A DNA stretch of 51,515 bases from a virus. Taxonomy: Duplodnaviria; Caudoviricetes. Each line of letters begins with the position of its first letter. Within the stretch, counting starts at the first letter, position 1. Shown here piece by piece: positions 3,154-49,482 of this stretch. Position numbers and translations under genes: made by a program. The notes beneath the pieces were generated by a model. The model saw only the letters and a list, made by a program, of their open reading frames with translations, had not been told where the DNA came from and did not search any database. Location: positions 1-51,515 of IMG/VR virus record IMGVR_UViG_3300023076_000001; one strand, 5' to 3'.

Positions 3154-3563
3154 CCAAGCGGGTTTTGGGCCACGCTGCCCAAGCCGCACGCACGCCGTTC
3201 AGCTACGCGACGGGCCACGACTGCGCGCAACGGTTCATCGGGGATTGGGTGCTTGCGGAGGTAGGGCTAGACCCTGCGAAGGCATGGCGGGGGCGCTACC
3301 AGACGGGGCTGGGCTGTCAGCGCCTTCTGCGAAGCTCTGGCGGGCTTGTGGCGGTCCTTGCCGAGGCCTTGGAGGGCGTGGGCCTGGTCAGAACCGAAAC
3401 TCCCGCCCTTGGTGACGTCGGGGCGGTCATGATGCAGAGTGAATACCGCATCGAGCCGGTGGGCGCTCTCATGGGGCCAGATGGTTGGCTATCCCTCACG
3501 GGGCGCGGTATCAGATCAACTCAGGCTGACCGCTTCGTCGCCGCTTGGAGTGTTCCCAGATGA
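3138..3563 (+). CDS. NlpC/P60-like tail assembly protein (DUF6950-like)
   Basis: PF.Y..HDC, WRGRY and GDVG motifs; upstream of the tip protein. Confidence 0.75.
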   Translation: MDDLLAKRVLGHAAQAARTPFSYATGHDCAQRFIGDWVLAEVGLDPAKAWRGRYQTGLGCQRLLRSSGGLVAVLAEALEGVGLVRTETPALGDVGAVMMQSEYRIEPVGALMGPDGWLSLTGRGIRSTQADRFVAAWSVPR

Positions 3564-15952: not shown

Positions 15953-16669
15953 CTAAAACGCTTCCGGCGCTAGGCGGCGGTCAATCTCGCGCCTAGCGTT
16001 CCACTTCAGATCCTCTTCCATTGATGGCTGAGCCAACATCCAGTTAAGGAATCCACCCTCTACCTCGGCCCATGGCTTGCCCCTGAACTTGCCGATTGGA
16101 CAAGTCGGCAAAAGGCGTGGCTCCTTGGTCCAGGCGATCATTTCCTTGCCGGTGGCTCCGGTTTCGAACAGGGCCTTGAGAATGTGGGCTGTGACATAAG
16201 CATCAGGCCCGGCGCGGTGCGGAGGCATGGCCAGATCATGGCGAAGTGAAAGCTTGCCCTGATCCTCTAGCCAGTAGCGCAGGACGCTATTGGAGTGGCC
16301 CTCCGCTTCAGGCCAAACCCGGTAAGCGGATTTGAGGGTGCAGATGGCGGGAAGAAACACCTCACCCAGAAAGCGCGCCTCGAAATCGAAGTTATGCGCA
16401 ACCAGAGCACCGCAATGGTCCGCCCCTTCATGCAAAGCAATCTGGTCGAAGGGTGGGAGGCCCGCGACCTCATCCATGGTGATGTGATGAACCGCGCGAA
16501 CGGTGGCGCTGATCGCCTTGACTCCGTAGAGCGCAGAGGATGGCTCCCCCACACTCCACGTTCCATCAGCGAGTTTTGTGAGGTCGCAGTATCCATACTC
16601 GACCACCTCCGCGCCCTCGCTTGGCTCCATTCCAGTAGTTTCGAAATCGATAACCCGAAGCGTAGTCAT
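15953..16669 (-). CDS. DEDDh 3'-5' exonuclease (ExoX-like)
   Basis: VIDFETTG, VAHNFDFE, HRAGPDAYVT; C-terminal PIGKFRGKPW..FLNW domain. Confidence 0.9.
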   Translation of the reverse strand: MTTLRVIDFETTGMEPSEGAEVVEYGYCDLTKLADGTWSVGEPSSALYGVKAISATVRAVHHITMDEVAGLPPFDQIALHEGADHCGALVAHNFDFEARFLGEVFLPAICTLKSAYRVWPEAEGHSNSVLRYWLEDQGKLSLRHDLAMPPHRAGPDAYVTAHILKALFETGATGKEMIAWTKEPRLLPTCPIGKFRGKPWAEVEGGFLNWMLAQPSMEEDLKWNARREIDRRLAPEAF

Positions 16670-16672
16670 GGC

Positions 16673-18436
16673 TTAACCTTCCGCCAAACGCTTGACGATC
16701 AGGGCGACCGTCTGCGTTAGGCTTTCCTGGCTGGCGGCGGGCATACGGCCAAAGGTCAGCGAGCCCTTGAGCTTCAGGAACGCCGAGTTGACGGCCTTGG
16801 AGCCTTCCGCACCAGCGGCTTGCGTGTCGGCCCAGAGCCGGAAGAACGATGGCGAGTCGGTGTGAGAAGGCGGCGACTTCAGGCCCACGGCGACGGCGTA
16901 CACGGCGCGCCGGAAAGCGGCCTTGTCGTCGTAATCCAGCTTTTTGAAGTCGTCGCCGTTGTAGATGCCGGGCAGCTTTTGCTGGATGGTCCCGAACTCC
17001 GTAGCCGTGCGCAGATCGGCCAAGATGGCGGCTTGCCACTCGGGGAGGTCTTCTTCGACCTCTTCGGCCAGCGGCTCGGGGTGGGCTTCGTACTCAGGAA
17101 GCTTGGCGAACTCGTCAAAGTTCACCCGCTGGAAGGGCTCGCCGTCGATATAGGATTGGGCGCAGTCGTCGGAGCCGATCTCCTCGCCGGCCAGGGTGTA
17201 TTCGACCCCGCGAGGAGCGGGGCCGGGGCATTGCTCCAGGGGATGCCATTCGCCGTCTTCATCATCGGCGAGGCCTGCCATTGCCTCGGCGACCGTTGCC
17301 GTTGAAGGCGCGGGCTTGTCGCCGGGAAACTCGTCGGCGATCTCGGCGGCAGCATCGTCCGCGTGGTCCACGACATCGCCCGGCTTCGTCGGGTGCATCG
17401 TGTAGCGCGCCAGTTGCGCCGCGCCCTTCTCACCGGCGTTCGAATGCTTCTCGCCGTCCTTGTAGGTTGGCACGCGGCCCGCGTCGCTCACGGGATCGCC
17501 AGCAAGCATATAGATCACGCCGGCCGGGGCTGGGCCGTTGATCTCGTCGCGAGCCTTGGGTGGGAAGACCTTGGCGGGCTCCGGTTCCTCAATAACGGCG
17601 TCTGGGATCTCCCCCGTTTCGGGATCGTGGGGCGTTTCGGCTTCCACCTGTTGTTCGTCAGATCCGAGCGCCTCCAAGGCAGCGGCGTTGAAGCCCTCGG
17701 TGGGCTTAACGGGTTGTTGTTGGAGTCGGGTGAGAACGCTGGTGCCGAGTTCATGCTGAACGGTCGTCAGGCCCTCGACTTCCTGGCCGCTCATTTCCTC
17801 GGCTGTCGGGCCGCCGTCTTCTTCGGGGAAGGCGCAGCGCAGGGCGTTGGCCTCGGCGCACTTGGCGAGTTGAGAATAGGTCTTGGTCTTCCACATGTCG
17901 TTAGGCGCCAGCGTGTCACGCTTGGCCTTGGCGTAGTATTCCTTCCACCGGACCTTCTCGCCGACAAAGGCGCACGCCACGCCCGCGACGAAACGATAGA
18001 CCGTGACTTGCGCCCACTCGGGATATGTCACATCGACGCCCCCCAGGTTTTCGGTCTTGTCGGGGCCGAAAGCGGTCTCGTCCTTGCCCGCGTAGTGGCC
18101 CGTTCGCATGGCCGTGATACGAACTTCAGCGATGGAGGGCCAGACCGAGTCCACCATCCGCGAGCGCTTCTTGTCATAGACAGGGACGACGTGAACGGGC
18201 TTCTTGAGAACGTCCAGCTTCCGCGCCTTGCAGTAGGCCAGAACGTTGATGATCGTCTCGGGCTCTTCGGCGGACGGGTAGAGAACATCAGTCAGGAACT
18301 TCCAAGTTCCACGGTCGATGCCGAACCGCTCCTCAATGAGCGGGTGATACGGAAGGCGCGGCCCCGACAGCCGCAGCTCGTTGCGTGGCTGCTGAGTAGT
18401 GGTGGCGATCTGAGTGCTTTCGGCTTGTTCGGTCAT
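16673..18436 (-). CDS. bet: Single-strand annealing recombinase (Bet/RecT family) with long C-terminal extension
   Basis: YCKARKLD..KKPVHVVP, AMRTGHYAG, QLAKCAEANALRCAFPE; PHDPETGEI linker; downstream of the RecE-like gene. Confidence 0.88.
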   Translation of the reverse strand: MTEQAESTQIATTTQQPRNELRLSGPRLPYHPLIEERFGIDRGTWKFLTDVLYPSAEEPETIINVLAYCKARKLDVLKKPVHVVPVYDKKRSRMVDSVWPSIAEVRITAMRTGHYAGKDETAFGPDKTENLGGVDVTYPEWAQVTVYRFVAGVACAFVGEKVRWKEYYAKAKRDTLAPNDMWKTKTYSQLAKCAEANALRCAFPEEDGGPTAEEMSGQEVEGLTTVQHELGTSVLTRLQQQPVKPTEGFNAAALEALGSDEQQVEAETPHDPETGEIPDAVIEEPEPAKVFPPKARDEINGPAPAGVIYMLAGDPVSDAGRVPTYKDGEKHSNAGEKGAAQLARYTMHPTKPGDVVDHADDAAAEIADEFPGDKPAPSTATVAEAMAGLADDEDGEWHPLEQCPGPAPRGVEYTLAGEEIGSDDCAQSYIDGEPFQRVNFDEFAKLPEYEAHPEPLAEEVEEDLPEWQAAILADLRTATEFGTIQQKLPGIYNGDDFKKLDYDDKAAFRRAVYAVAVGLKSPPSHTDSPSFFRLWADTQAAGAEGSKAVNSAFLKLKGSLTFGRMPAASQESLTQTVALIVKRLAEG

Positions 18437-19386
18437 TGGCTGAGTTCCGCTTCCATAATTTTGATGCGCTCTTCGATCTTCTTGCGCTTCCAGGGGAGGA
18501 TTGTGATGTGCTGGGCGTCGCGTTGCTCCCCGCCGATGCCGGGCCACACACCCGTTTTCAGGCATCGGTCGAAGGTATCCAAGGCGACGCGATTTTGACG
18601 CTGTCCTAGTTCAAGGTCTTCGCCGATCAGCGAGTGAACGCGGGCTTCGTGGGGCTCTTCGGTTTGACTGAAGACTAGCGTGAACGAGTTCATGGGCTCG
18701 CCGATCACGGCAAGAACGCCGTCTCCGACAAGGGCGCCCTGTTGGTTCATTCCGAGATCGCCGACCGCTTTGGCCAGGCCGTCGTCATCAATCGCCGCCG
18801 TGCTCTTGAAGTCGGATATATCAAGGCTGCTGGTCGGGATTACGTCGGGGCGGACCTTGAGCCAAATCCCGGTTTTCTCGTCCTGCCAGAACAAGGACGT
18901 TTCCACGAACCCGTTCAGGATGCCTTCTTTGACCATGGGGTGAGCCGAAAGCTCACGCGCCATGCCGCGAATGGAGGTCAGATCATCCGAGCTGATAATG
19001 ATCTTCCCGGCGTTTTCCTCTGCCCATTTTTTGCAGTACTTGGCCCCGCCATGCCAAGGCTTGGGCTCGCCCGTCTTGTCGTCGGGATATGTCGCGGGTT
19101 GGACGACGAACTTAGCGCGGAAGTCGTGCATTTCGAGAACGGCGGCGTGGGATGCGGACCCGAAAAGCATTGCCTTGGTCGGGTCCTTGACGACCCGGTT
19201 CGGATTTCCTGCCCAGAACCGGAAGAAGTGCTTTGCGCCCTTGTTGAAGATGGTCTTTAGGGTCGTGGAAGACGCGGACGGACCCACGCAGATGTCATGC
19301 CGGTGATAGTCCTCCAACGGCATTCCGACGATCCAGCAAGGCCGATCAATCGGTTTCCCGTCCCACTTTTCGGGCTTGAGTAGCAT
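18433..19386 (-). CDS. RecE/exonuclease VIII-like PD-(D/E)XK nuclease
   Basis: SSTTLK, FGSASH, ETSLFW..TGIWLKVRPD, DFKST. Confidence 0.88.
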   Translation of the reverse strand: MLLKPEKWDGKPIDRPCWIVGMPLEDYHRHDICVGPSASSTTLKTIFNKGAKHFFRFWAGNPNRVVKDPTKAMLFGSASHAAVLEMHDFRAKFVVQPATYPDDKTGEPKPWHGGAKYCKKWAEENAGKIIISSDDLTSIRGMARELSAHPMVKEGILNGFVETSLFWQDEKTGIWLKVRPDVIPTSSLDISDFKSTAAIDDDGLAKAVGDLGMNQQGALVGDGVLAVIGEPMNSFTLVFSQTEEPHEARVHSLIGEDLELGQRQNRVALDTFDRCLKTGVWPGIGGEQRDAQHITILPWKRKKIEERIKIMEAELSQ

Positions 19387-23333: not shown

Positions 23334-23488
23334 GCGTTCAGCTCGACCTATTCGACAGGCCGCTACCGAAGTGCGGCGATTGTCGCAACCTCGGGCCGGC
23401 GATTGAAAGCGGCGTTCGATATTGCCTGGGGTGCTTAACCTGGCGGTGGGCGGATGATCGGATCGATTGCCGGTCCTACAAGCCATGA
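23330..23488 (+). CDS. Unannotated 52-aa Cys-rich protein with N-terminal QLDLF clamp-binding motif
   Basis: MSVQLDLFDRPLPKCGDC...YCLGC...DC; 4-nt overlaps with both neighbours. Confidence 0.75.
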   Translation: MSVQLDLFDRPLPKCGDCRNLGPAIESGVRYCLGCLTWRWADDRIDCRSYKP

Positions 23489-24030
23489 CCCCACCCATTG
23501 GCCAGTTCGGCCTGGTACTGGCTGACCCTCCATGGCGCTTCATCACGCGCGACGGGGTTTCAGCGGTCCCAACGCAGGCCGATGACCCATACCCGACCAT
23601 GAGCCTGGACGAGCTGAAGGCCATGGACATGTCGTTCACGGGCGCGGCCGATTGCGTCTGCGTCATGTGGGCGACGGCGCCGTTGCTGCCCGAGGCCATC
23701 GACATGCTTGGGGCATGGGGGTTTGCCTACAAGACGGCGGGTTCGTGGGCCAAGCAATCCAGCACGGGGAGGAAGTGGGCCTTTGGGACCGGGTATATCT
23801 TCCGGTCGGCGGCCGAGTTCTACGTCGTCGGGATGCGTGGATCTCCGCGCCTCAAGTCGAAGTCGGTTCGCAACCTGATCGTCGCACCGATTCGGGAGCA
23901 CTCGCGCAAGCCCGACGACATGCACGTCATGTGTGAGAAGCTTTTCGATGGCCCGTATCTGGAGCTTTTCGGACGCCAGCAGCGGCCAGGCTGGACGGTC
24001 GTGGGAAACGAGGCTCACAAGTTCGGATGA
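23485..24030 (+). CDS. MT-A70 family adenine methyltransferase
   Basis: LADPPW, YPTM, WGFAYKT, REHSRKP, YLELFGR. Confidence 0.92.
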   Translation: MTPPIGQFGLVLADPPWRFITRDGVSAVPTQADDPYPTMSLDELKAMDMSFTGAADCVCVMWATAPLLPEAIDMLGAWGFAYKTAGSWAKQSSTGRKWAFGTGYIFRSAAEFYVVGMRGSPRLKSKSVRNLIVAPIREHSRKPDDMHVMCEKLFDGPYLELFGRQQRPGWTVVGNEAHKFG

Positions 24031-24216
24031 GATCGGCGGCCTGGGAGGATCGCCGCCCTCCCAGGCCTGGGCCGCAGCGTCAACGAATGGTGCCAGCCAA
24101 GGCGAGGGACTAAGCCCCCGACGAGAACACCACCGGACTGAAGCGGCCTTGACCATTGAGATAGCGGATTGCCCGGCGTCTGTCCATTGACCGGATTATG
24201 ACGGAAGGCTTATGAA

Positions 24217-24282
24217 GGGCGGGCGGCGCTGCTACCAACAGCCGCCGCCCATAACCACCGGCTGCTAGGAGAGCCTGACGTG
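24217..24282 (+). promoter_or_regulatory. Hairpin-TAACC-RBS hairpin leader (copy 3)
   Basis: GGGCGGCGCTG..CAGCCGCCGCCC-ATAACC then GGCT..AGGAG.AGCC before GTG 24280 (18-aa ORF coupled to the methylase). Confidence 0.5.
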
Positions 24283-24332
24283 ATCGACCGGATAAATACC
24301 GGTGCGCCCTCTTTGTTGCAAGGGCGCTCTGA

Positions 24333-25007
24333 ATGACCCGAACCGAAGTGATATGCGACGCCACGCTGTACCTCGGCGACTGTCGCGACATCCTGCCGAC
24401 GCTTGAGCGCGTCGATGCGGTTGTGACCGATCCTCCGTATGGGATTGCCGCAGCTAAAAAAGGCGCGCATTCGTCAATTCGTGACAATGATGCTTGGGCC
24501 CCCGCTGATTGGGATGATGGTCGCCCCCCAGAAAGCCTGTTTGCGACCCTGTTACGGTCCCGCGAAGTCGCGATCTGGGGTGGTAATTATTTCGCCGACC
24601 TTCTTCCGGCGTCTTCCGCTTGGCTGGCCTGGGTCAAGCCCGAAGCTGACACGGGCTTCTCCCTCGCAGACATGGAATTGTGCTGGACGAACCTGGGATT
24701 TGCGGCGCGCACGAAGCGACTACCGCGCCGAGACGGTAACGAACACCCCACGCAGAAGCCCGTTTCGGTGATGGCTTGGACGCTGAGTTTTGTAAAATCG
24801 GCCACCGTGCTTGACCCGTTCATGGGCTCAGGAACCACCGGCGTTGCGTGCGTCAATCTGGGCCGCGCATTCATCGGCATTGAGCGCGACCCGACATACT
24901 TCGACATCGCCTGTCGTCGCATCGAGGAAGCCTACAAGCAGCCACGCCTGTTCGCCGAGCCCGTGTCCAAACCCGTTCAAACGTCATTCCTGGACGAGTT
25001 CAGATGA
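24333..25007 (+). CDS. Beta-class N4-C/N6-A DNA methyltransferase
   Basis: GDC..L, VTDPPYG, HPTQKP, VLDPFMGSGTT, FIGIE. Confidence 0.93.
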   Translation: MTRTEVICDATLYLGDCRDILPTLERVDAVVTDPPYGIAAAKKGAHSSIRDNDAWAPADWDDGRPPESLFATLLRSREVAIWGGNYFADLLPASSAWLAWVKPEADTGFSLADMELCWTNLGFAARTKRLPRRDGNEHPTQKPVSVMAWTLSFVKSATVLDPFMGSGTTGVACVNLGRAFIGIERDPTYFDIACRRIEEAYKQPRLFAEPVSKPVQTSFLDEFR

Positions 25008-42029: not shown

Positions 42030-43124
42030 TTGTACAAGCCGTATCTCGATCTGCGGACCTTCACGGCCAACTCGGTCACGGGTCCGAAGAAGAACAAAGA
42101 CCACGCCCTGTGGTGGAACGAGCAAAACGCCGCTCGCGAGTGGTTCCGCCACGAAGAGGTTCGCTTCGCCGACTTCATGGCGAACGCGACCGGCGCCCGC
42201 AACGCCTCCGGTATCCTGCCGCGCGATGCATGGCTCGAAATGGACGGCATCACTCGCCGCGTCATGCGGTCGGATGAAGGTCAAGCCTACATGGCCGACC
42301 TGATGCCGCTGGCCAAGACCGTCAACATCGGCAAAATCGTTCAACTGAACCGCGTCTCATCGGACGCTGGCGCGGTTGTCCGGTCGATCTCGGGTCAACG
42401 CCCGACGCTGATGGATAAGGTCGTCTATGACTATCGCGGGACGCCCGTTCCGATCTTCTCCACCGGCTACGGCCGGGCCTGGCGGGAATGGAACGCCTTC
42501 CAGAGCGAGAACTTCGACGCCCTGTCGGACGACCAAGAGGCCCACGTCGCGAAGATCCGCCGCGACCAAGCCCTCTACGCCCTGAACGGTGACACCACCA
42601 TCAACGTCCAAGGCTATACCGGCTACGGCATCAAGACCTCGCCGTACTCCAAGAACATCAACGTGGGTCCGGCCGGTTACAACATCGACCTGACGTCGAA
42701 CGCCACCACGGCGACCGCTATCCTGAACTTCTTCACTCAGGGCCTCGGTACGACGTTCTTGGACGCCAACTTCCTGGTCGGCGGCTACATCCTGTACGTC
42801 TCCCCGCAAATCTGGCGCAACCTGATGCGTCCGATCAGCGACGGCGCCGGCCTGGTCCTGGGCACGATCTACGACCAACTGCTGAAGTCGGGCGAAATCG
42901 CCGCGATCAAGCGGACCTTCGAACTGACCGGCAACCAGTTCTTCGGCTTTGTGCCCAAGGCTGAGTACATCCGGCCTCTGATCGGCATGGCGGTTAACAC
43001 CGTCGCCATCGCCCGTCAGAACCCGTTCGACGATTATTCCTTCCATATCTGGGGGGCCATGGGTCTCGAAATTCGGGCGGATATCAACGGCAGGAGCGGA
43101 GTGTTCTTCTCCAGTTCGTCGTAA
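42030..43124 (+). CDS. Major capsid protein
   Basis: AAGGAGG RBS, TTG start, strong codon bias; DLMPLAKTVNIGK, PVPIFSTGYGR.WRE, WGAMGLEI. Confidence 0.92.
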   Translation: MYKPYLDLRTFTANSVTGPKKNKDHALWWNEQNAAREWFRHEEVRFADFMANATGARNASGILPRDAWLEMDGITRRVMRSDEGQAYMADLMPLAKTVNIGKIVQLNRVSSDAGAVVRSISGQRPTLMDKVVYDYRGTPVPIFSTGYGRAWREWNAFQSENFDALSDDQEAHVAKIRRDQALYALNGDTTINVQGYTGYGIKTSPYSKNINVGPAGYNIDLTSNATTATAILNFFTQGLGTTFLDANFLVGGYILYVSPQIWRNLMRPISDGAGLVLGTIYDQLLKSGEIAAIKRTFELTGNQFFGFVPKAEYIRPLIGMAVNTVAIARQNPFDDYSFHIWGAMGLEIRADINGRSGVFFSSSS

Positions 43125-43152
43125 CTCGGCTTAAAGCATCAGTGGCGTATCG

Positions 43153-43180
43153 CGGGGAGAGTTTCGGCTCTCCCCGTTTT
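43153..43180 (+). terminator. Intrinsic terminator after the MCP
   Basis: CGGGGAGAG-TTTCGG-CTCTCCCCG-TTTT. Confidence 0.88.
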
Positions 43181-43689
43181 CATTTGAGCCAAGCCCATGC
43201 CTGCCGCTTGCGAATTACAGTGATGTGGTCGGGCTCTACGCCATAGCGCTTCGCGAGAACACCGGGTCTGTCGAGTGATGCTCGAATGTCCAAAACGTCC
43301 TGCACCGTGAGTTTGGACGCGGGGCGATCCTCTCCCCGAGAAATCGTGCCTTCTGCGCAGGCGTCGGAGATGTTCTCGGCTTGTGTCCCCCATCGGACAT
43401 GTCGCGGATGAACGCAACCGACCTTGCCATTTCCGCAGGAGTGGAGCGCGAATGGTGCGTCTTGAGGCGGATCGCCGTTCACCAAGATACACATGACTCG
43501 GGAAGCGTTTCGGTTCACCCCTTCATAGACAACCGCGCCGTAACCGTTCTTGAAGGTGGCAAAAGGCCAGATCAGGCAGGGTCCATCGGTCAAGCCCGTC
43601 CTGTCTCGGAGCCAAGCCATCGGAACCCCGTTGGAGGCTCGCTTCCTCTTGATGGGCGCGGCGTTCGGCAATACAGCTTTGCCAGCCAT
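43180..43689 (-). CDS. HNH homing endonuclease 1
   Basis: CLIWPF, NGYG, HSCGNG..CVHPRHVRWGTQAEN; C-terminal KLT..DV..IR HTH. Confidence 0.9.
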   Translation of the reverse strand: MAGKAVLPNAAPIKRKRASNGVPMAWLRDRTGLTDGPCLIWPFATFKNGYGAVVYEGVNRNASRVMCILVNGDPPQDAPFALHSCGNGKVGCVHPRHVRWGTQAENISDACAEGTISRGEDRPASKLTVQDVLDIRASLDRPGVLAKRYGVEPDHITVIRKRQAWAWLK

Positions 43690-43758
43690 CTTCGATCCTT
43701 CCGAGATCGTTCGTGGTTAGGGCCGGGTTGAGCACTTCCGATGCTCCCCGGCCCGCCC
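43687..43758 (-). promoter_or_regulatory. Hairpin-TAACC-RBS hairpin leader (copy 1)
   Basis: GGGCCGGG..CCCGGCCC-TAACC-ACG-AACGATC..AGGATCGAAG-ATGGCT. Confidence 0.65.
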
Positions 43759-43784
43759 ATTATGGCTGTATGGTGGTTATCCGC

Positions 43785-44543
43785 CTAGCCCTTCTCGACT
43801 TCAGCCAGAACGGCGTCAGCAATGCGCGCCAAGTAGACGTCATGGTCAGCGCAACGCTCGACGCTTTCGGCCGCGTGAATGACCCTTGTTCGCAGGGTCT
43901 TGGGCTTGGGGGTGGGGATGACATTGATGATCTCACTCGGGCCGATGTAGCGGAGAGCATCAGGGCGTTCAGGCCTACCAAGACAGGCGACCTCGCCATC
44001 TTGGTCTAGGCCCGCGCTGTGAACCTTCAGCCGAACCGTGACCTCATCCCCCGCCTTGATCGTGGAGAAGTCGAACTCAGCGGCGGGGATTTCGGTGGGC
44101 CGGGTGTCAGGCTCGCCCAGGATGGTGAAAAACTTCCCGAACGGTTTGGGCTCGATCACGATGGATGGGTTGGCCTCGCCGAGTTTTGGGGCCGCAAGGT
44201 CCGCCGCCGCGATCTCCTCGGGGGTGGCGAGGCGGGCGCAGTCCTGAGCTATGAACACGCCCTGGATGACCAGATAATACGGCGCTGTAGCCGGCTGACA
44301 AATTTGGTCGATCTTATAGGCCGCCGCTGGGGGCATTCGTCGCGTGATTCCTTCGCCGTCCAAGACGACCCAATCCCCCACCATAAATTCCCCTGCCTTG
44401 GCGTAGAGTTCGAAGCTCGCGGCGAGGCACGCAAAACCGTCATCGGTTTTGATAGTGGTGCCATTCGCGTTTGTGTCGGTAACTGTCCGAATTGTTCCCG
44501 TGTCACGGTCTCTTAGGCGATCACCGATTTCGAACTTGGTCAT
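43785..44543 (-). CDS. Protein with three F/I..GD.V SH3/KOW-like modules
   Basis: GGAGA RBS; FEIGDRL, FMVGDWV, IKAGDEV. Confidence 0.7.
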   Translation of the reverse strand: MTKFEIGDRLRDRDTGTIRTVTDTNANGTTIKTDDGFACLAASFELYAKAGEFMVGDWVVLDGEGITRRMPPAAAYKIDQICQPATAPYYLVIQGVFIAQDCARLATPEEIAAADLAAPKLGEANPSIVIEPKPFGKFFTILGEPDTRPTEIPAAEFDFSTIKAGDEVTVRLKVHSAGLDQDGEVACLGRPERPDALRYIGPSEIINVIPTPKPKTLRTRVIHAAESVERCADHDVYLARIADAVLAEVEKG

Positions 44544-44791
44544 GATGGTTCTCCGGTTGGTGGGGCGAGAATGACGGGGCTGTTGAAGTTGAGCGGTAGC
44601 GCCCGAGCCAGGATGAATTTCGCCTCGCGATGCATCCAGTTGTTGATGGGCGCCTGACGCGTGAAGACGGCGTAATAGCCCGCCGCGCGCCCTCCCGTGA
44701 TCTTGACGGCGAGGTTGTCGCGCCAAGCCTTCCACAGGGCCAAGTCCTGGGGGCTATAGCGGTCAACGGTGACGGCTGTGGTCGTGGACAT
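44540..44791 (-). CDS. Hypothetical protein
   Basis: First gene of the leftward island; ATGA coupling. Confidence 0.6.
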   Translation of the reverse strand: MSTTTAVTVDRYSPQDLALWKAWRDNLAVKITGGRAAGYYAVFTRQAPINNWMHREAKFILARALPLNFNSPVILAPPTGEPS

Positions 44792-44831
44792 GGGGCGTCT
44801 CTTGGTTGGCTGGCGGCGGCGACCGCGTTAG

Positions 44832-44865
44832 CGAGACTGTAGCGACGTGAGGGCCGATCTGCAAC
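44832..44865 (-). promoter_or_regulatory. Leftward promoter of the island in the late region
   Basis: Minus strand TTGCAG..GCTACAGT; CGAGACTGTAG is identical to the copy at 19449. Confidence 0.5.
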
Positions 44866-44951
44866 CCGCTTGTTTGTCGTTGTGCTGCGTTTAGGTATTG
44901 TCCCCCGGTAAGCGGCCCTTCGCCGCGTCACCGCTACAAGGAATTTCACCA

Positions 44952-45392
44952 ATGCCCGGTATCAAGATCAAACTGCGCGCCATTTCCGACAGCATCCAAT
45001 CGACCGGCGTTTACGGCAAGGATGGCGAGTATCCGGTCGGCCATGCCCTGACCCTGCCCGAGGGCGTTCCGCTGATCGGCAGCGGCTATGAGCGCCATGA
45101 AGTCATCAGCAAGGGCACGACCGCCGCCCATGAGACCGCGACCGGCGCCACCAGCGGCACGGATGACGTTTCGGGAACCGCCAAGGATGCGGGCCAGGTC
45201 CAAGACGCCGATCTGACCGCGACCACCGGCTATACCGTCGCCGAGTCCGAGTCGGCCGGCTGGTGGGTCATCACCGACAAGGACGGTGCCCAGGTCGGCC
45301 CGAAGCTGCGGAAGGCCGATGCTGATGCGTTCTCGGCCCTGAAGCCCGACGAGCAAGACGAGTACGCCGCCCAACACGTCGAAGCGGTCTAG
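44952..45392 (+). CDS. Hypothetical head-associated protein
   Basis: AAGGA RBS; high-expression codon bias; resumes the late operon. Confidence 0.65.
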   Translation: MPGIKIKLRAISDSIQSTGVYGKDGEYPVGHALTLPEGVPLIGSGYERHEVISKGTTAAHETATGATSGTDDVSGTAKDAGQVQDADLTATTGYTVAESESAGWWVITDKDGAQVGPKLRKADADAFSALKPDEQDEYAAQHVEAV

Positions 45393-45395
45393 GTC

Positions 45396-45653
45396 ATGGC
45401 CTTCCCTTACCTCATCGACGCGGTTGGCGGGGCGCAGAAGTACGCCCGCGCCGCCACTGTCGGGCCGAGCGGAAGTGATGCTATCATCGTCTCGGGTGTC
45501 ACCACGGCCGGGACGGTGGTTATCACGCTAAAGGGCGGGGGAACGGTCACTTGGGCGGTTGCGTTGGGGTCAACGATCCTGCCCTTTGACGCGATCGCCG
45601 CAGCCCTCGGGACGGCGGTTGGAGGGACCTTTCAGGCCGCGTATCTCACCTAG
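45396..45653 (+). CDS. Head spike base protein (RcGTA Rcc01079-like)
   Basis: AGTVVITLKGGGTVTW.V..G.TILP pattern; 85 aa. Confidence 0.5.
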   Translation: MAFPYLIDAVGGAQKYARAATVGPSGSDAIIVSGVTTAGTVVITLKGGGTVTWAVALGSTILPFDAIAAALGTAVGGTFQAAYLT

Positions 45654-45661
45654 GCCGGAAC

Positions 45662-46198
45662 ATGCCCCAAGCCTTCGCTACCCCTCAAGCCGCAGCCGCC
45701 ATGGACACTAGCGCCGTGGCGGCTGCTTTGTTGTCGGACACCCCGCCTATCGCGGAAGCCACTACGCCAGCGGCGGGGGCAGGACCGAAGGCCAGCCGAT
45801 ACGACCATCTACATCCCCGCTTGTCGTCGGCCCAAAGCGGAACGCTGGACGGCAACGGACAGGCTACGGTCATCTTCACCCGCACGTTTACCGCAAAGCC
45901 CGCTGTGACCGTTCTCGCCGTGGAAGATGACACCAACCCCGTTCCGCGCTTCAAGGTGCGGCGTTGGCTGAAGGCTGATGGATCTGCGTGGGTGTCAGGT
46001 CCTTACGGCGGATGCGTCATCTACGGGGACCGGGCGCGTGTTCTGCCCACTATCACGCAATTGAACGGCGGAATTATCGTCCTGCTGGCGTCGCTGATCA
46101 CGGCTTTGAACACGATCCTCGCGCAACTCAGCGGCTATGCTCCCTATGTCCCGGCCGCCAGTGTCGAGTTCAGCCTGATCGCGTTGCAGCCCTCCTAG
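45662..46198 (+). CDS. Putative head fibre/spike protein
   Basis: ASRYDHLHP; VIFTRTFTAKPAV (H-type lectin-like); follows the spike base gene. Confidence 0.45.
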   Translation: MPQAFATPQAAAAMDTSAVAAALLSDTPPIAEATTPAAGAGPKASRYDHLHPRLSSAQSGTLDGNGQATVIFTRTFTAKPAVTVLAVEDDTNPVPRFKVRRWLKADGSAWVSGPYGGCVIYGDRARVLPTITQLNGGIIVLLASLITALNTILAQLSGYAPYVPAASVEFSLIALQPS

Positions 46199-46254
46199 TT
46201 GGACCGGAGCGACATTCCGCGTTAAATGCGTCCACACCTCAAGGGATGGCGCAA

Positions 46255-46755
46255 ATGGGCTATGGCGACGACACTCAGTTCAATGCGTGGCTCTCAGCTC
46301 GGGGCTATTCGCTCCCAGCATCGCCGCCGACCGCCGCTCAACTGCGACAGATCGGCTCCGATTACATCGACGGCACGTATGGGAACCGCTTCACGGGCTA
46401 CCCGACCGGGGGTTTTGCCCAAGAGCGCGCATGGCCGCGAACGAACGGCATCACGACCAACTGTCAGCCGATCCCGGCCGACGTCATTCCCTTGGCGGTC
46501 ATCAACGCCTCGTATGCGGCGGCCTATCAAGAGGCCGTGGCCCCCGGCTCTCTGAGTGTGACTACCGGCTCAGAAGGCGCCATCAAGCGCGAGAAGGTCG
46601 GCCAGCTAGAAGTCGAATACGCTGGGGCCTCGTCGTCGGCCTCCATCGTCACGACCTCGCCCATCCTGTCGTCGGTTGACGGGCTTCTCGCGCCCTACCT
46701 GCGGCCTGATCCGAACACGTTTTCGCCGCTTCTGCTGCTGGCCATCGGCGAATGA
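46255..46755 (+). CDS. Head-tail adaptor (DnaT_2-like family)
   Basis: SDYID, QERAWPR, IP..VINA, KREKVGQLEVEY. Confidence 0.85.
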   Translation: MGYGDDTQFNAWLSARGYSLPASPPTAAQLRQIGSDYIDGTYGNRFTGYPTGGFAQERAWPRTNGITTNCQPIPADVIPLAVINASYAAAYQEAVAPGSLSVTTGSEGAIKREKVGQLEVEYAGASSSASIVTTSPILSSVDGLLAPYLRPDPNTFSPLLLLAIGE

Positions 46756-47081
46756 GCGCCTTCAACTACGCCCGCAGCCAAGCCCTTGCCGAAAAGCTCA
46801 TCACGCGCTTTGGCCAGGTCGGCAAGCACCGACGCGGCGTAACCGATACGCCCATCAAACTGGCCGTGCTCGAATACACCGCCCGCGAGATGGACGGGAC
46901 GCGGGTTCAAGTCGGAGACCGGCGTATCTACATCAGCCCCATTGGTGCGCCGTCCGACATCAAGGCCGGTGACAAGATCATCGACGCGGCTGGCGTTCCG
47001 TATGTCGTCGTTGTGGCCTCTCCGCTCTCGCCTGCGGGCATCGTGGCGTATTGGGACGTCCAGGGCCGGGGGCCTAAGTAG
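46752..47081 (+). CDS. Head closure protein
   Basis: FNYARSQALAEKLITRFG; DGT.VQVGD. Confidence 0.8.
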   Translation: MSAFNYARSQALAEKLITRFGQVGKHRRGVTDTPIKLAVLEYTAREMDGTRVQVGDRRIYISPIGAPSDIKAGDKIIDAAGVPYVVVVASPLSPAGIVAYWDVQGRGPK

Positions 47082-48119
47082 TTGGCCAGCCAGATCGCGC
47101 AATTCGAGGCCCTGCTAGACCACTATGCGCCCGGCGTGGCCGCCGCATTCCGGTCATCGATTGCCGACATCGCCAAGCGAGCCGACGTTAAGCGCATGGT
47201 CGCGGCCCTTAAGGATGGCGACATAACAGCAGTTATCGAGGCCATGCACATCGACGAGGCGGCCTTCACGGATTTCGAGGAAGCGTTTCGCGAGGTCTTC
47301 ATCCGCGCAGGCAACGACACGGCCGACGCGATCCCCGGTTTTGAGGACGGCCAGGGCAATCCGGTTCGCATCCGCTTCTCTGGTCGCCATCCGCTGGCCG
47401 AGCGCTTCCTGTCGGATCATAGCGGCCAACTAATCACGGACATCACCGTAGACACGCGCCAAGCCGTGCGCGAGACGATGACCAAGGCCCTGGCGCTAGG
47501 CAAGAACCCCACAACCATAGTCGCCGACACCGTGGGCCGAGTGAACCGCGTTAGCGGGCGTCGTGAAGGCGGGGTGATCGGGCTTACCACGCAGCAGGCC
47601 CGAGCCGTGGACAACGCGGCCCAGAACCTCGCCAGCGGAAACCCGGCTTCCTTGCCCGACTATCTACGGCTCAAACTGCGCGACAAGCGATACGATAGGG
47701 CCATTTCCGCCGCGCTAGAGGCCGGGAAGCCCGTTCCCGAGGCCACGGCAACCCGCGCCCTCTCGTCCTACCGTAACCGCCTTCTCGCCTACCGCGCCAA
47801 GACAATCGGTAGAACCGAGGTCATGACGGCGCTGAACCAAGGCCGATACAACGCCTACGAACAGGCCATTGCAGACGGAAAGCTCAAGGTCGAAAATCTC
47901 ACCAAGAAGTGGCGGGATGCCCATGACATGCGCGTCAGGCATGACCATGCCGTTTTGGGATCGCGCCCGGCTATTGGCTTCAACGAAATATTCGTCACCC
48001 CATCTGGGGCGATGATGCGGTTTCCCATGGACACAAGCCTGGGGGCTCCAGCGTCAGAAATAATTTCGTGCAGATGCGTTTTAGAGGTGAGGGTCGATAC
48101 CCTGGCAGGTGTAAAGTAA
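47082..48119 (+). CDS. Minor head protein (MuF/SPP1 gp7-like)
   Basis: RAKTIGRTE, KKWRDAHDMRVRHDH, EIISCRC. Confidence 0.88.
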   Translation: MASQIAQFEALLDHYAPGVAAAFRSSIADIAKRADVKRMVAALKDGDITAVIEAMHIDEAAFTDFEEAFREVFIRAGNDTADAIPGFEDGQGNPVRIRFSGRHPLAERFLSDHSGQLITDITVDTRQAVRETMTKALALGKNPTTIVADTVGRVNRVSGRREGGVIGLTTQQARAVDNAAQNLASGNPASLPDYLRLKLRDKRYDRAISAALEAGKPVPEATATRALSSYRNRLLAYRAKTIGRTEVMTALNQGRYNAYEQAIADGKLKVENLTKKWRDAHDMRVRHDHAVLGSRPAIGFNEIFVTPSGAMMRFPMDTSLGAPASEIISCRCVLEVRVDTLAGVK

Positions 48120-48120
48120 T

Positions 48121-48188
48121 CGGGGCGCTAGGTGTTTCCGCACCTTAAGCGCCCCTAACCGAAACGATCATGTGAGGATCGAATGGCT
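48121..48188 (+). promoter_or_regulatory. Hairpin-TAACC-RBS hairpin leader (copy 2)
   Basis: GGGGCGCT..AGCGCCCC-TAACC-GA-AACGATC..AGGATCGA-ATGGCT. Confidence 0.65.
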
Positions 48189-49034
48189 GCATCAGGTATA
48201 TGCGTGGTCCCCGGCTGCGCCAAGCCCATCAAACGCAAACGAGACGGGCTGTGCAACGCGCATATGCTGCGATTGCAGAGATATGGCGATGTGCGAGCAA
48301 GCGTCGCCGCCCGCGTCTTTCTCCCGTCCGATACACCATGCGGCGTCCCAGGATGTGCCAACCTCAACGAGACCAAAGGCCTTTGTGGCATGCACTATCA
48401 GCGCCTTCGATTTAAGGGCGATGTCGGAGGCCCCGATCCGCGCAAAGCCGGAACGTGCGCCATCGAAGGGTGCGGCCGAAATCTAGCGCAAAAGGGCCTT
48501 TGCGCCGTGCATGCCACGCGTTTGAAGCGTCACGGGGACGCCATGCACGGTGGCCCCATCCGCAGAAAGGCCCCTAAAGGAACGTTACTTCCGTGGCTGC
48601 ACGCTAACGTGAGCCATGCATGCGATGAATGCCTGATCTGGCCCTTCTCGCGGGACAGTAATGGTTATGGCGGCATCACTTACAAAGGTGCTGACACGCG
48701 GGCTCACGTTGTGATGTGCGAACTAGTGAACGGACTAAAGCCAAGCGCAGCCCACGTTGCGGCGCACTCCTGCGGTCGGGGACATGACGGGTGCGTAAAC
48801 CCCAATCATCTCCGCTGGGCCACAGCACTAGAGAATGCGGCAGATAAAGTGAGTCACGGAACTCAGCCCGCAGGCTCTCAGATTTGGAACGCCATTCTTT
48901 CTGAGGAAGATGTGCGGTGGATAAGGGAAAACCCCGAAGGGTTAAGGCAAAAGGATATGGCGCTAAGGCTCGGTGTTGGCCGATCCAGCATCAGCGCTAT
49001 AGTGCGCCGCAAGCAATGGCGATGTGTCACGTAA
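48183..49034 (+). CDS. HNH homing endonuclease 2 with three N-terminal C..C..GLC..H Zn-finger repeats
   Basis: Three repeats of C.VPGC/C.IEGC..GLC..H..R...GD; CLIWPF..HSCG..CVNPNHLRW. Confidence 0.9.
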   Translation: MAASGICVVPGCAKPIKRKRDGLCNAHMLRLQRYGDVRASVAARVFLPSDTPCGVPGCANLNETKGLCGMHYQRLRFKGDVGGPDPRKAGTCAIEGCGRNLAQKGLCAVHATRLKRHGDAMHGGPIRRKAPKGTLLPWLHANVSHACDECLIWPFSRDSNGYGGITYKGADTRAHVVMCELVNGLKPSAAHVAAHSCGRGHDGCVNPNHLRWATALENAADKVSHGTQPAGSQIWNAILSEEDVRWIRENPEGLRQKDMALRLGVGRSSISAIVRRKQWRCVT

Positions 49035-49047
49035 CCGAGGGTCATAG

Positions 49048-49482
49048 TTGGCAAAATTCTCCGACCTTGTGACGCAGTTCTGCCGGGAGACGCCCGAACG
49101 CATGGATGCGGTCTTTGCGCTCTCTGTCCAGAAGACGATTTCAGTTATGCAAACCCCCGTGGGGGCTGGGGGGAATATGCCTGTGGATACCGGGTTCCTG
49201 CGAAACTCCCTGGCGGTGAACCTGGGAACAACGCCACCAGCAATCACGCTCCAAAGAAACCCTGGAACTGGCGTCTTTACGTATGACCCATCCGCGTCAA
49301 ACCTAGACATCAAGGCCGAGGAAGGCGCCACGGCGGTCTATAGCGCTGACTATGCCATCTATGCGGAGTTCGGCGCGCGAGGGCGACCGGGACGCCGTTT
49401 TGTGGCATTGGCTGTCCAACAGTGGCCGCAGATCGTGAGCCGCTCTAGCCGAGAACTAGAGAACCGAGTGCGAAATGGCTGA
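49048..49482 (+). CDS. Neck protein (HK97 gp10-like)
   Basis: MPVDTGFLRNS; YAIYAEFG; QQWPQIV. Confidence 0.85.
   Translation: MAKFSDLVTQFCRETPERMDAVFALSVQKTISVMQTPVGAGGNMPVDTGFLRNSLAVNLGTTPPAITLQRNPGTGVFTYDPSASNLDIKAEEGATAVYSADYAIYAEFGARGRPGRRFVALAVQQWPQIVSRSSRELENRVRNG

Follow-up and report, generated by a model that had tools for sequence, protein, structure and literature searches.

The DNA considered here is the complete 51.5-kb record of a virus of the Caudoviricetes (IMG/VR record IMGVR_UViG_3300023076_000001; 51,515 nucleotides (nt), hereafter referred to as the window), which carries terminal repeats and has a G+C content of 61%. Its structural genes (terminase, portal, capsid, head-tail connector, neck and tail) lie on the plus strand and are interrupted by two HNH endonuclease genes, HNH-A and HNH-B. 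The subject of this work is the conserved leader that precedes each of these genes and that is probably, on its opposite strand, also the gene for a small antisense RNA. Three minus-strand genes form a block after the capsid gene, with HNH-A as the last of them, and HNH-B is placed between the head-morphogenesis gene and a neck gene. The two proteins are paralogues with 40% identity over the HNH and helix-turn-helix core. HNH-A matches HNH families of PHROG (best E-value 1.9e-15) and has no Pfam match at E <= 0.01; HNH-B matches Pfam HNH_3 (E 3.2e-5, just under the cut-off of that family) and HTH_3, as well as the PHROG HNH families. Pfam was run on 58 open reading frames (ORFs) of the window, PHROGs alone being used for the remaining 24; a blastn search of 6.2 kb of the window against phages returned a single match of 54 nt. 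The two genes and their leaders are located as follows.

43180..43689, minus strand: HNH-A gene, 169 residues, with an HNH core and a C-terminal helix-turn-helix-like region
48183..49034, plus strand: HNH-B gene, 283 residues, with three N-terminal Cys/His-rich repeats, an HNH core and a helix-turn-helix
43684..43754, minus strand: copy A of the element, sense 5' leader of HNH-A (from sequence, fold, covariance model R1 and Rfam RF00043)
48122..48188, plus strand: copy B of the element, sense 5' leader of HNH-B (from sequence, fold, covariance model R1 and Rfam RF00043)

Ahead of both genes the parts follow in the same order, namely a two-part GC hairpin of 34-35 nt, CCTAACC, CGATC-N7-GATCG, one to three nt and ATGGCT. 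In copy A the 35-nt two-part hairpin (43754-43720) leads into TAACC (43719-43715), AACGATC (43711-43705, with CGATC at 43709-43705), the loop TCGGAAG, GATCG (43697-43693), AAG and ATGGCT (43689-43684). In copy B the 34-nt hairpin (48122-48155) leads into TAACC (48156-48160), AACGATC (48163-48169, with CGATC at 48165-48169), the loop ATGTGAG, GATCG (48177-48181), a single A and ATGGCT (48183-48188). The string AACGATCNNNNNAGGATCG occurs exactly twice in the window with no mismatches, and no site is added when up to two mismatches are allowed (shuffle mean 0.43). The covariance model R1, which was built solely from phage and prophage copies of the element, scores copy B at 65.1 bits and copy A at 63.7 bits, the next best site in the window reaching 12.5 bits. 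The original prediction, that a conserved structured leader stands ahead of both HNH genes, thus agrees with the sequence, and the match between the leaders is far beyond chance because the core is nearly identical while the proteins are only 40% identical. A role as stop codon for the TAA of CCTAACC was considered and rejected, as two copies have TGA and the only ORF ending there at copy B has 8 codons.

Copies of the element were collected with an exact pattern taken from the leader, over viral contigs and over bacterial genomes (one per species). In all 23 pattern matches in the viral contigs TAACC is immediately preceded by a stable hairpin whose last bases are CC and is followed by an ATGGCT or GTGGCT start, and the genes behind these matches encode HNH proteins, two GIY-YIG-like proteins, zinc-ribbon proteins and small ORFs of unknown function. 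The bacterial genomes gave 55 pattern matches, 19 of them with the start motif downstream; 17 of these were kept as showing the full architecture, ahead of unrelated genes, and two were dropped as chance matches (L058, with a weak hairpin, and L097, at a ribosomal protein L27 gene in an Acidobacteriota genome). Most of the 17 carriers (14) bear alphaproteobacterial names, from the Sphingomonadales, the Rhizobiales in the broad sense, the Paracoccaceae and the Micropepsaceae; the remaining three are a metagenome-assembled genome (MAG) labelled 'Proteobacteria', a Phycisphaeraceae MAG and an unplaced taxon. Model R1 gave one to three matches in each of 22 related records, 38 in total (E <= 0.01), and blastn of the leader against plasmids gave chance-level matches only (E 4). 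A separate search for HNH homologues returned 17 loci; among the ten whose gene starts were examined, the leader is present at three (L003, L004 and L007; 52-53% protein identity) and absent from seven.

Conservation of pairing was assessed in a model-guided alignment of 49 matches, 43 of them distinct. In this alignment 88.5% of the cells are paired as against 77.0% in shuffles, 12 of the 19 pairs are changed on both sides, none of 500 shuffles scores as high, and the signal is lost when the partners are slid. Compensatory changes are found in both helices. The sequence of the large hairpin varies freely while its pairing is kept, and the two window copies follow this pattern; their large hairpins are unlike in sequence, and the 81-nt leaders nevertheless fold strongly, at -35.5 and -31.7 kcal/mol (z -2.85 and -3.45, respectively). 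The earlier observation that the first hairpins differ in sequence and keep their pairing extends to the family. In the small hairpin at the Shine-Dalgarno (SD) sequence the model finds CGACC/GGTCG, CGACG/CGTCG and CGAAC/GTTCG in place of CGATC/GATCG; these variants keep complementarity rather than sequence and are thus the signature of RNA pairing, not of the operator of one protein. The helix closing the SD hairpin on the sense strand (CCA/UGG) shows no covariation, and pairs better on the antisense strand, as AGCC/GGUU. The homologues thus show the covariation for which the original prediction had proposed a covariance model and an Rfam search.

The small hairpin taken alone is weak. It folds at -6.0 and -4.8 kcal/mol in the two copies, with 53 and 40 of 200 shuffles, respectively, folding as well or better. 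The CGATC/GATCG stem had been described as covering the AGGA of the SD sequence; it does take in the last two bases (GA), whereas the G-rich SD core lies in the 7-nt loop. The SD hairpins of both copies therefore lack the character of the very stable, SD-burying cis hairpins of the T4 type, and the proposal that they sequester the ribosome-binding site (RBS) in that manner is not upheld, the stem being too weak and too much of the SD sequence unpaired. That T4-type homing endonucleases are limited by RBS hairpins is itself supported by the account in PMC2988022. With a weak SD hairpin and most of the SD sequence in the loop, occlusion in cis alone is a poor explanation of the element.

Upstream of the large hairpins, -10-like boxes are present on the sense strand.

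43759..43764, minus strand: -10-like box CATAAT, 4 nt upstream of hairpin A, a possible sense promoter (upstream profile of 41 unique flanks)
48112..48117, plus strand: -10-like box TAAAGT, 4 nt upstream of hairpin B, with a poor -35 position (1/6)

The sense -35 position of copy A reads TAGGCG (3/6), and the complement of its CATAAT is the U-containing tail of the predicted antisense RNA described below. About half of the 41 flanks have a TTG at -33 to -31, 17 nt before the A-rich -10 region; with boxes at such a fixed distance, the sense transcript would begin at the hairpin base. In 37 of the 41 flanks a C follows the A-rich run and directly adjoins the hairpin, so that the opposite strand reads as hairpin, G and U-containing tail.

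The opposite strand of both leaders has the features expected of a small RNA gene, listed here as predicted.

43684..43764, plus strand: predicted antisense RNA A, about 75-80 nt, starting with AGCCAU and ending in the tail GCCCAUUAUG
48112..48188, minus strand: predicted antisense RNA B, about 75 nt, starting with AGCCAU and ending in the tail GAUUACUUUA
43649..43677, plus strand: predicted antisense promoter A, within codons 5-14 of HNH-A; TTGATG (43649-43654), 17-nt spacer, TACAGC (43672-43677)
48195..48223, minus strand: predicted antisense promoter B, within codons 5-14 of HNH-B; TTGGCG (48223-48218), 17-nt spacer, TATACC (48200-48195)

Predicted RNA A comprises a first stem-loop with the anti-SD sequence, a GGUUAGG linker, a 3' hairpin and its tail, and folds into two stem-loops at -36.7 kcal/mol (z -4.61). 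In predicted RNA B the stem-loop CGAUC-CUCACAU-GAUCG, the GGUUAGG linker, a 3' hairpin and the tail follow one another, and the fold again has two stem-loops (-32.2 kcal/mol, z -4.80). For neither RNA did any of 200 shuffles fold as well. Six nt separate TACAGC from the A at 43684 and, likewise, TATACC from the A opposite 48188; the hexamers match the consensus at 4/6 and 3/6 positions for promoter A and at 4/6 and 4/6 for promoter B. The start position of the antisense RNA is placed from this promoter geometry and from the precedent of SymR, and is to be taken as predicted.

A promoter-like signal at these positions is conserved among the copies at large. When 42 unique copies with unrelated coding sequences were anchored at the ATG, position +18 was A or T in 42/42, +17 was T in 28/42, +41 was A in 35/42 and +40 was A in 26/42; with one representative for each of the 32 clusters into which the copies fall, +18 was still A or T in 32/32. 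In these representatives the summed match of the opposite strand to TTGACA and TATAAT peaks at the predicted register (4.91; 4.09 at +1), and the 24 other shifts tested give values of 2.09-3.28. The resulting geometry is TTGnnn-N17-TAnnnn-N6-A, with the -35-like box at +36 to +41 and the -10-like box at +13 to +18. Positions +17/+18 and +40/+41 thus correspond to the TA of the -10 and the TT of the -35 box, which would set the start 6-7 nt beyond the -10 box, at the complement of ATGGCT, opposite +6. The 'PIKRKR' shared by the N-termini of both HNH proteins may be explained by its position over the predicted -35 box of the opposite strand.

The two strands of the leader also differ in their folding. 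In 42 of 43 unique copies it is the antisense strand that has the stabler fold (mean -35.2 against -28.2 kcal/mol), and it contains 3.9 G-U pairs per copy as against 0.7 on the sense strand. Its minimum-energy fold has exactly two hairpins in all 43 copies, and its 5' AGCC pairs with GGUU in 40 of them; this AGCC/GGUU pairing on the antisense strand accounts for the invariance of TAACC and GGCT. The antisense folds have the two stem-loops that characterise SymR, a 5' one with the anti-SD sequence and a 3' terminator hairpin.

SymR of E. coli and Salmonella is described as an RNA of 77 nt that represses SymE synthesis and is transcribed from a promoter lying within symE (Kawano et al. 2007, PMC1891008). 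RepX of R1162/RSF1010 is 75 nt long and antisense to repA-repC at the RBS and start codon; a GUUA spacer links its two stem-loops (PMC8136791). At gathering thresholds no Rfam family matched anywhere in the window, and the link to known families appeared in E-value mode only, in which both leaders match RF00043 (R1162-like plasmid antisense RNA) over its full length (1-75) at 22.9 bits for A and 20.1 bits for B. Among 20 related loci scanned with Rfam, six match RF00043 at 29.7-36.4 bits and two match RF01809 (SymR) on the opposite strand (L075, 48.2 bits, E 2.8e-7; L057, 33.5 bits). The RF00043 model as printed appears to match the mRNA-sense strand, since it reads SD-AUG and RepX is reported to have a GUUA spacer. 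In the reverse direction, R1 finds the E. coli K-12 symE leader at 3409-3336 with 23.1 bits (E 1.2e-5), the next match scoring 6.6 bits. The interval is nearly that annotated as SymR (3336-3412), and the layout is the same, with a hairpin, CUAAUCA, an SD hairpin and AUGACU. Annotated SymR starts opposite nucleotide +6 of symE, the very place occupied by AGCCAU in the window element. The element therefore forms a bridge at the sequence level between RF00043 and RF01809, two Rfam families listed without a clan.

Conservation, covariation, strand asymmetry, promoter-like positions and similarity to known loci are thus all present at these gene starts. On this sequence evidence it is considered likely that each leader stretch is the gene for a small antisense RNA of the SymR/R1162 type, covering the RBS and the start codon, and the same evidence favours a trans-acting product of the opposite strand over a purely cis-acting leader. 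We infer further that the antisense RNA is made and represses translation. Each HNH start would then be part of a regulatory module of about 130 bp that works in both directions. On the strand of the gene, a weak promoter with a -10-like box would give a transcript beginning at or near the stable GC-rich hairpin and continuing through the linker CCUAACC and a short hairpin showing the SD sequence in its loop to AUG GCU. On the opposite strand, transcription from the promoter in codons 5-14 would begin at the complement of codon 2 (5'-AGCCAU) and yield an RNA of about 75 nt. Its first stem-loop, closed by the AGCC-GGUU pairing, would hold the anti-SD sequence in the loop, and its second, the complement of the large hairpin, would serve as terminator and stabiliser. 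Such an RNA would be perfectly complementary to the SD sequence, the start codon and the 5' untranslated region (UTR) of the mRNA; contact through the complementary 7-nt loops, followed by zipping up, would block ribosome binding and probably also mark the mRNA for decay. These steps have been demonstrated for SymR acting on symE and for RepX acting on repA of R1162/RSF1010 and are carried over to the window element. A potentially toxic nuclease would then be made only when its mRNA outnumbers the antisense RNA, and since the sense loops of A and B differ (UCGGAAG and AUGUGAG), each RNA may prefer its own gene.

Several observations weigh against this interpretation. All matches to RF00043 and RF01809 are below the curated thresholds (best 36.4 against 55 bits and 48.2 against 61 bits, respectively), and the window copies have no match to SymR (RF01809) at E <= 10. 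The antisense hexamers of the window are mediocre (TTGATG/TACAGC in A, TTGGCG/TATACC in B), and a consensus promoter and terminator scan called no promoter on either strand at A or B and no terminator at the large hairpin; its sole terminator-like call in 48020-48320 is the small CGATC hairpin, on the minus strand. The antisense tails are modest in U, with 3 U in the first 9 nt in copy A, and 3 is also the mode of the family. In copy B, alone among the 43, the sense strand has a slightly more stable fold than the antisense strand (-31.5 against -31.0 kcal/mol). The AGCC/GGUU helix is invariant and hence outside the reach of the covariation test. Lastly, the shared core is partly built into the collection by the search pattern derived from the leader, an effect that touches neither the promoter signal downstream nor those variants that came from the model search.

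The alternative that survives best, though it is considered unlikely, is a purely cis-acting sense leader without any antisense RNA, in which the large hairpin would stabilise the 5' end of the mRNA and the SD hairpin would tune translation. Covariation of both helices fits an RNA of either strand, the sense promoter-like boxes upstream of the hairpin have the fixed spacing given above, and homing endonucleases of T4 do use RBS hairpins (PMC2988022). However, an SD hairpin of -4.8 to -6.0 kcal/mol that folds no better than shuffles and leaves the SD sequence mostly in its loop is ill suited to such tuning, and a cis leader leaves unexplained why promoter-like positions are conserved within unrelated coding sequences, why the opposite strand has the stabler fold and the additional G-U pairs, and why the SymR matches are on the opposite strand. 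A cis-acting layer could also coexist with the antisense RNA.

A role at the DNA level, in which the helix-turn-helix of the HNH proteins would bind CGATC-N7-GATCG as its operator, or the repeat would be a homing or recombination site travelling with the endonuclease gene, is very improbable. The repeat is a palindrome as DNA, both HNH proteins end in a helix-turn-helix (by Pfam for HNH-B), and the core appears to act as a recombination boundary in two contigs that match the window up to 48188 and then diverge. Yet the module precedes many genes for non-nuclease proteins without a helix-turn-helix, variants such as CGACG/CGTCG keep complementarity rather than sequence, and the large hairpin is free to vary in sequence so long as it pairs. 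Equally little credence is given to the large hairpin being merely the terminator of the upstream gene, with an ordinary RBS behind it and the resemblance of A and B left over from duplication of the HNH gene: the hairpins do lie just past the stops of the upstream genes (43785 and 48119) and the HNH genes are paralogous, but the sense strand has CCUAACC and no U run after the hairpin (for which reason a sense-strand terminator role was rejected), the terminator scan made no call there, the leader core is nearly identical against 40% identity of the proteins, and the element stands before unrelated genes in 17 bacterial genomes and at least 22 further viral records, a distribution that by itself contradicts this reading.

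The module appears to be able to move. Two contigs, both from other leaf-litter samples, agree with the window at every base as far as 48188 (the T of ATGGCT) and part from it there; one (X5 record 28) matches over 456 nt (window 47733-48188) and the other (X2 record 6) over 303 nt, with 44 letters left over. Beyond 48188 the reading frame of the X5 contig is a different one, M-A-N-A-R-I-C-S-V-D-G-C, similar to the other HNH type found in locus L102. This suggests that the gene behind the conserved leader has been replaced. Among loci with the L102-like HNH type, flank homology begins about 15 nt before the hairpin, and two unrelated upstream contexts are found. The identity up to 48188 followed by divergence, together with this flank pattern, suggests that the core behaves as a recombination joint and that the module can move with its gene. 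Most contig joints, including skips over 43034-43890 and 47838-49473, were left uninterpreted, as the intervening sequence is not known, and a search for relatives with the head-morphogenesis protein, made as a synteny test for mobility, found none. The view that the leader is a mobile cassette travelling with endonucleases is thus borne out as far as portability goes, since it precedes HNH genes in different flanks; specificity for endonucleases is not upheld, as it precedes other genes too and only 3 of the 10 HNH-homologue starts examined have it.

Besides the two copies, the window possibly contains a third, divergent one at 24187-24336 on the plus strand. The layout is the same, with TTGACC-N17-TTATGA, a hairpin (24221-24250), AUAACC, a small hairpin (a GGCU/AGCC stem with AGGAG in the loop) and a GTG at 24280. 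This GTG opens an ORF of 18 codons, the stop of which overlaps with the start (ATG at 24333) of a gene for an N6/N4 DNA methylase, and the opposite strand has TTGCAA-N17-TATTTA inside the 18-codon ORF. The antisense strand folds at -34.6 and the sense strand at -28.7 kcal/mol; model R1 gives the site only 11.8 bits, and the consensus promoter and terminator scan called no promoter at it.

Some further observations concern the carriers of the module. A near-consensus copy is present in Synechococcus phage Yong-M3-232 (L098, OM868076.1; 10568-10634, minus strand), where TTGACG-N17-CATAAA is followed after 4 nt by the hairpin and CCTAACC onward, with TTGGCA-N17-TATGAT as the antisense boxes; this record has two weaker matches as well, at about 35.6 kb. 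The recorded host of this phage is a cyanobacterium, the module being otherwise mostly in alphaproteobacterial genomes, and its annotation at the module consists of hypothetical proteins only. The covariance model could therefore be used to annotate a small-RNA gene that is unmarked in phage and prophage records such as this one. In two bacterial genomes an int-alpA RNA (RF02996) is found near the module (L096 258-337 and L088 8-72, both minus strand), one at 51.3 bits, above the threshold of 35.8, and the other at 33.0 bits, below it; these matches mark the regions as integrated mobile elements. In the 60 nt upstream of the hairpin in L120, L057, L073, L094, L047 and L062, pairs of palindromes that differ from prophage to prophage flank the sense -35 box, an example being TGTGTTAACACA, which occurs twice in L120. 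Their resemblance to repressor operators suggests that, in prophages, an early operon under repressor control begins with the module.

As regards the HNH genes and their surroundings, residues ~6-120 of HNH-B (48183-48560) form three tandem repeats of the type Cys-x-x-x-Gly-Cys ... Lys-Gly-Leu-Cys ... His ... Arg before the HNH core, and repeats of this type also open many leader-carrying HNH genes elsewhere. Between the convergent capsid gene (end 43124) and HNH-A (end 43180) a GC-rich hairpin, GGGGAGAG-CCGAAA-CTCTCCCC, occupies 43150-43182 and looks like a shared two-way terminator. The window also encodes two DNA methyltransferases, MT-A70 and N6_N4_Mtase (23467-24030 and 24333-25007), and a RecT-like protein adjoining an exonuclease (15953-18565).

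The original prediction had suggested that the element might be a cis-regulatory RNA of an undescribed kind. Its resemblance to the described antisense-RNA loci of R1162/RepX and SymR argues otherwise, and on the best explanation of the sequences the kind itself is known and the novelty lies in the setting, that of an antisense-RNA module in phages with homing endonucleases as its targets. No paper was found in the open-access literature on antisense RNA at HNH or homing-endonuclease genes, or on SymR/RepX-like RNAs in alphaproteobacterial phages. Should the antisense RNA be made, the free-standing endonuclease genes of these phages (HNH and GIY-YIG) would be restrained by the device that controls a type I toxin of E. 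coli and the copy number of IncQ plasmids, in contrast to T4, which restrains its endonucleases by cis hairpins instead.

In the T-even phages, by the account in PMC2988022, a very stable cis hairpin buries the RBS of I-TevI, I-TevII, I-TevIII, segB and mobE, and late transcripts bypass it. Common to these genes and the window element is an RNA structure at the RBS of a homing endonuclease gene that holds translation down or, in the window element, would do so; they differ in that the SD hairpin of the window is weak and its SD sequence mostly in the loop, and a trans-acting antisense RNA is indicated. The SAS/ESAS elements of Cluster K mycobacteriophages, as described in PMC3203893, are likewise conserved SD-containing motifs a few bases upstream of the starts of unrelated genes, are often preceded by an inverted repeat and favour ATG starts. 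According to their authors, however, the ESAS repeats do not keep RNA pairing, whereas both helices of the window element covary, and that description gives 11-19 SAS per genome and mentions no opposite-strand promoter (PMC3203893). The PeSL cassettes of T4-like phages are reported as composites of terminator and early promoter in variable (hyperplastic) regions, and resemble the window module as short conserved composite regulatory sequences between variable genes and perhaps as points of genetic exchange; the account of them (PMC4122927) describes no antisense RNA, while the window module is found in one to three copies per record and extends into the coding sequence.

Much closer is RepX. 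The RF00043 consensus and both leaders share the order of parts, with a two-part hairpin, CCUAACCA, an SD hairpin and AUGGCU, and in both the SD hairpin is closed by CCA/UGG; RepX extends over its target's RBS and start codon and represses the downstream gene, and its GUUA spacer is contained in the GGUUAGG of the window element. The sequences of the SD hairpins differ, and RepX regulates the copy number of IncQ plasmids, on which it is found ahead of repA, whereas the window element is on a phage and its targets would be HNH genes. RepX is also bound by FinO, while no FinO/ProQ domain was found by Pfam in the 58 window ORFs scanned.

With SymR the element would share, as predicted from its sequence, a location opposite the 5' UTR, SD sequence and start codon and a promoter in the target ORF; common to both are also two stem-loops of which the 5' one carries the anti-SD sequence and the other is a terminator hairpin, and a nuclease-like target, a toxin under tight control in the case of SymR. 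They differ in the core (CUAAUCA and AUGACU in symE, CCUAACC and AUGGCU in the window element), in their targets (SymE, a toxin of the AbrB fold, as against HNH endonucleases here and diverse genes elsewhere) and in their carriers (an enterobacterial chromosome as against phages and prophages, mostly of alphaproteobacteria); a LexA site is reported at the symE promoter (PMC1891008). It may tentatively be proposed, as a joint reading that we hold to be somewhat less probable than its contrary, that SymR, RepX and the window element are members of one old, horizontally mobile family of 'antisense-guarded start sites', that its unit comprises the promoter, the 5' UTR, the first dozen codons and a built-in counter-transcript gene, and that mobile elements set it in front of harmful cargo, homing endonucleases for instance and perhaps DNA methylases, the invariant core being also the recombination joint at which cargo is swapped.

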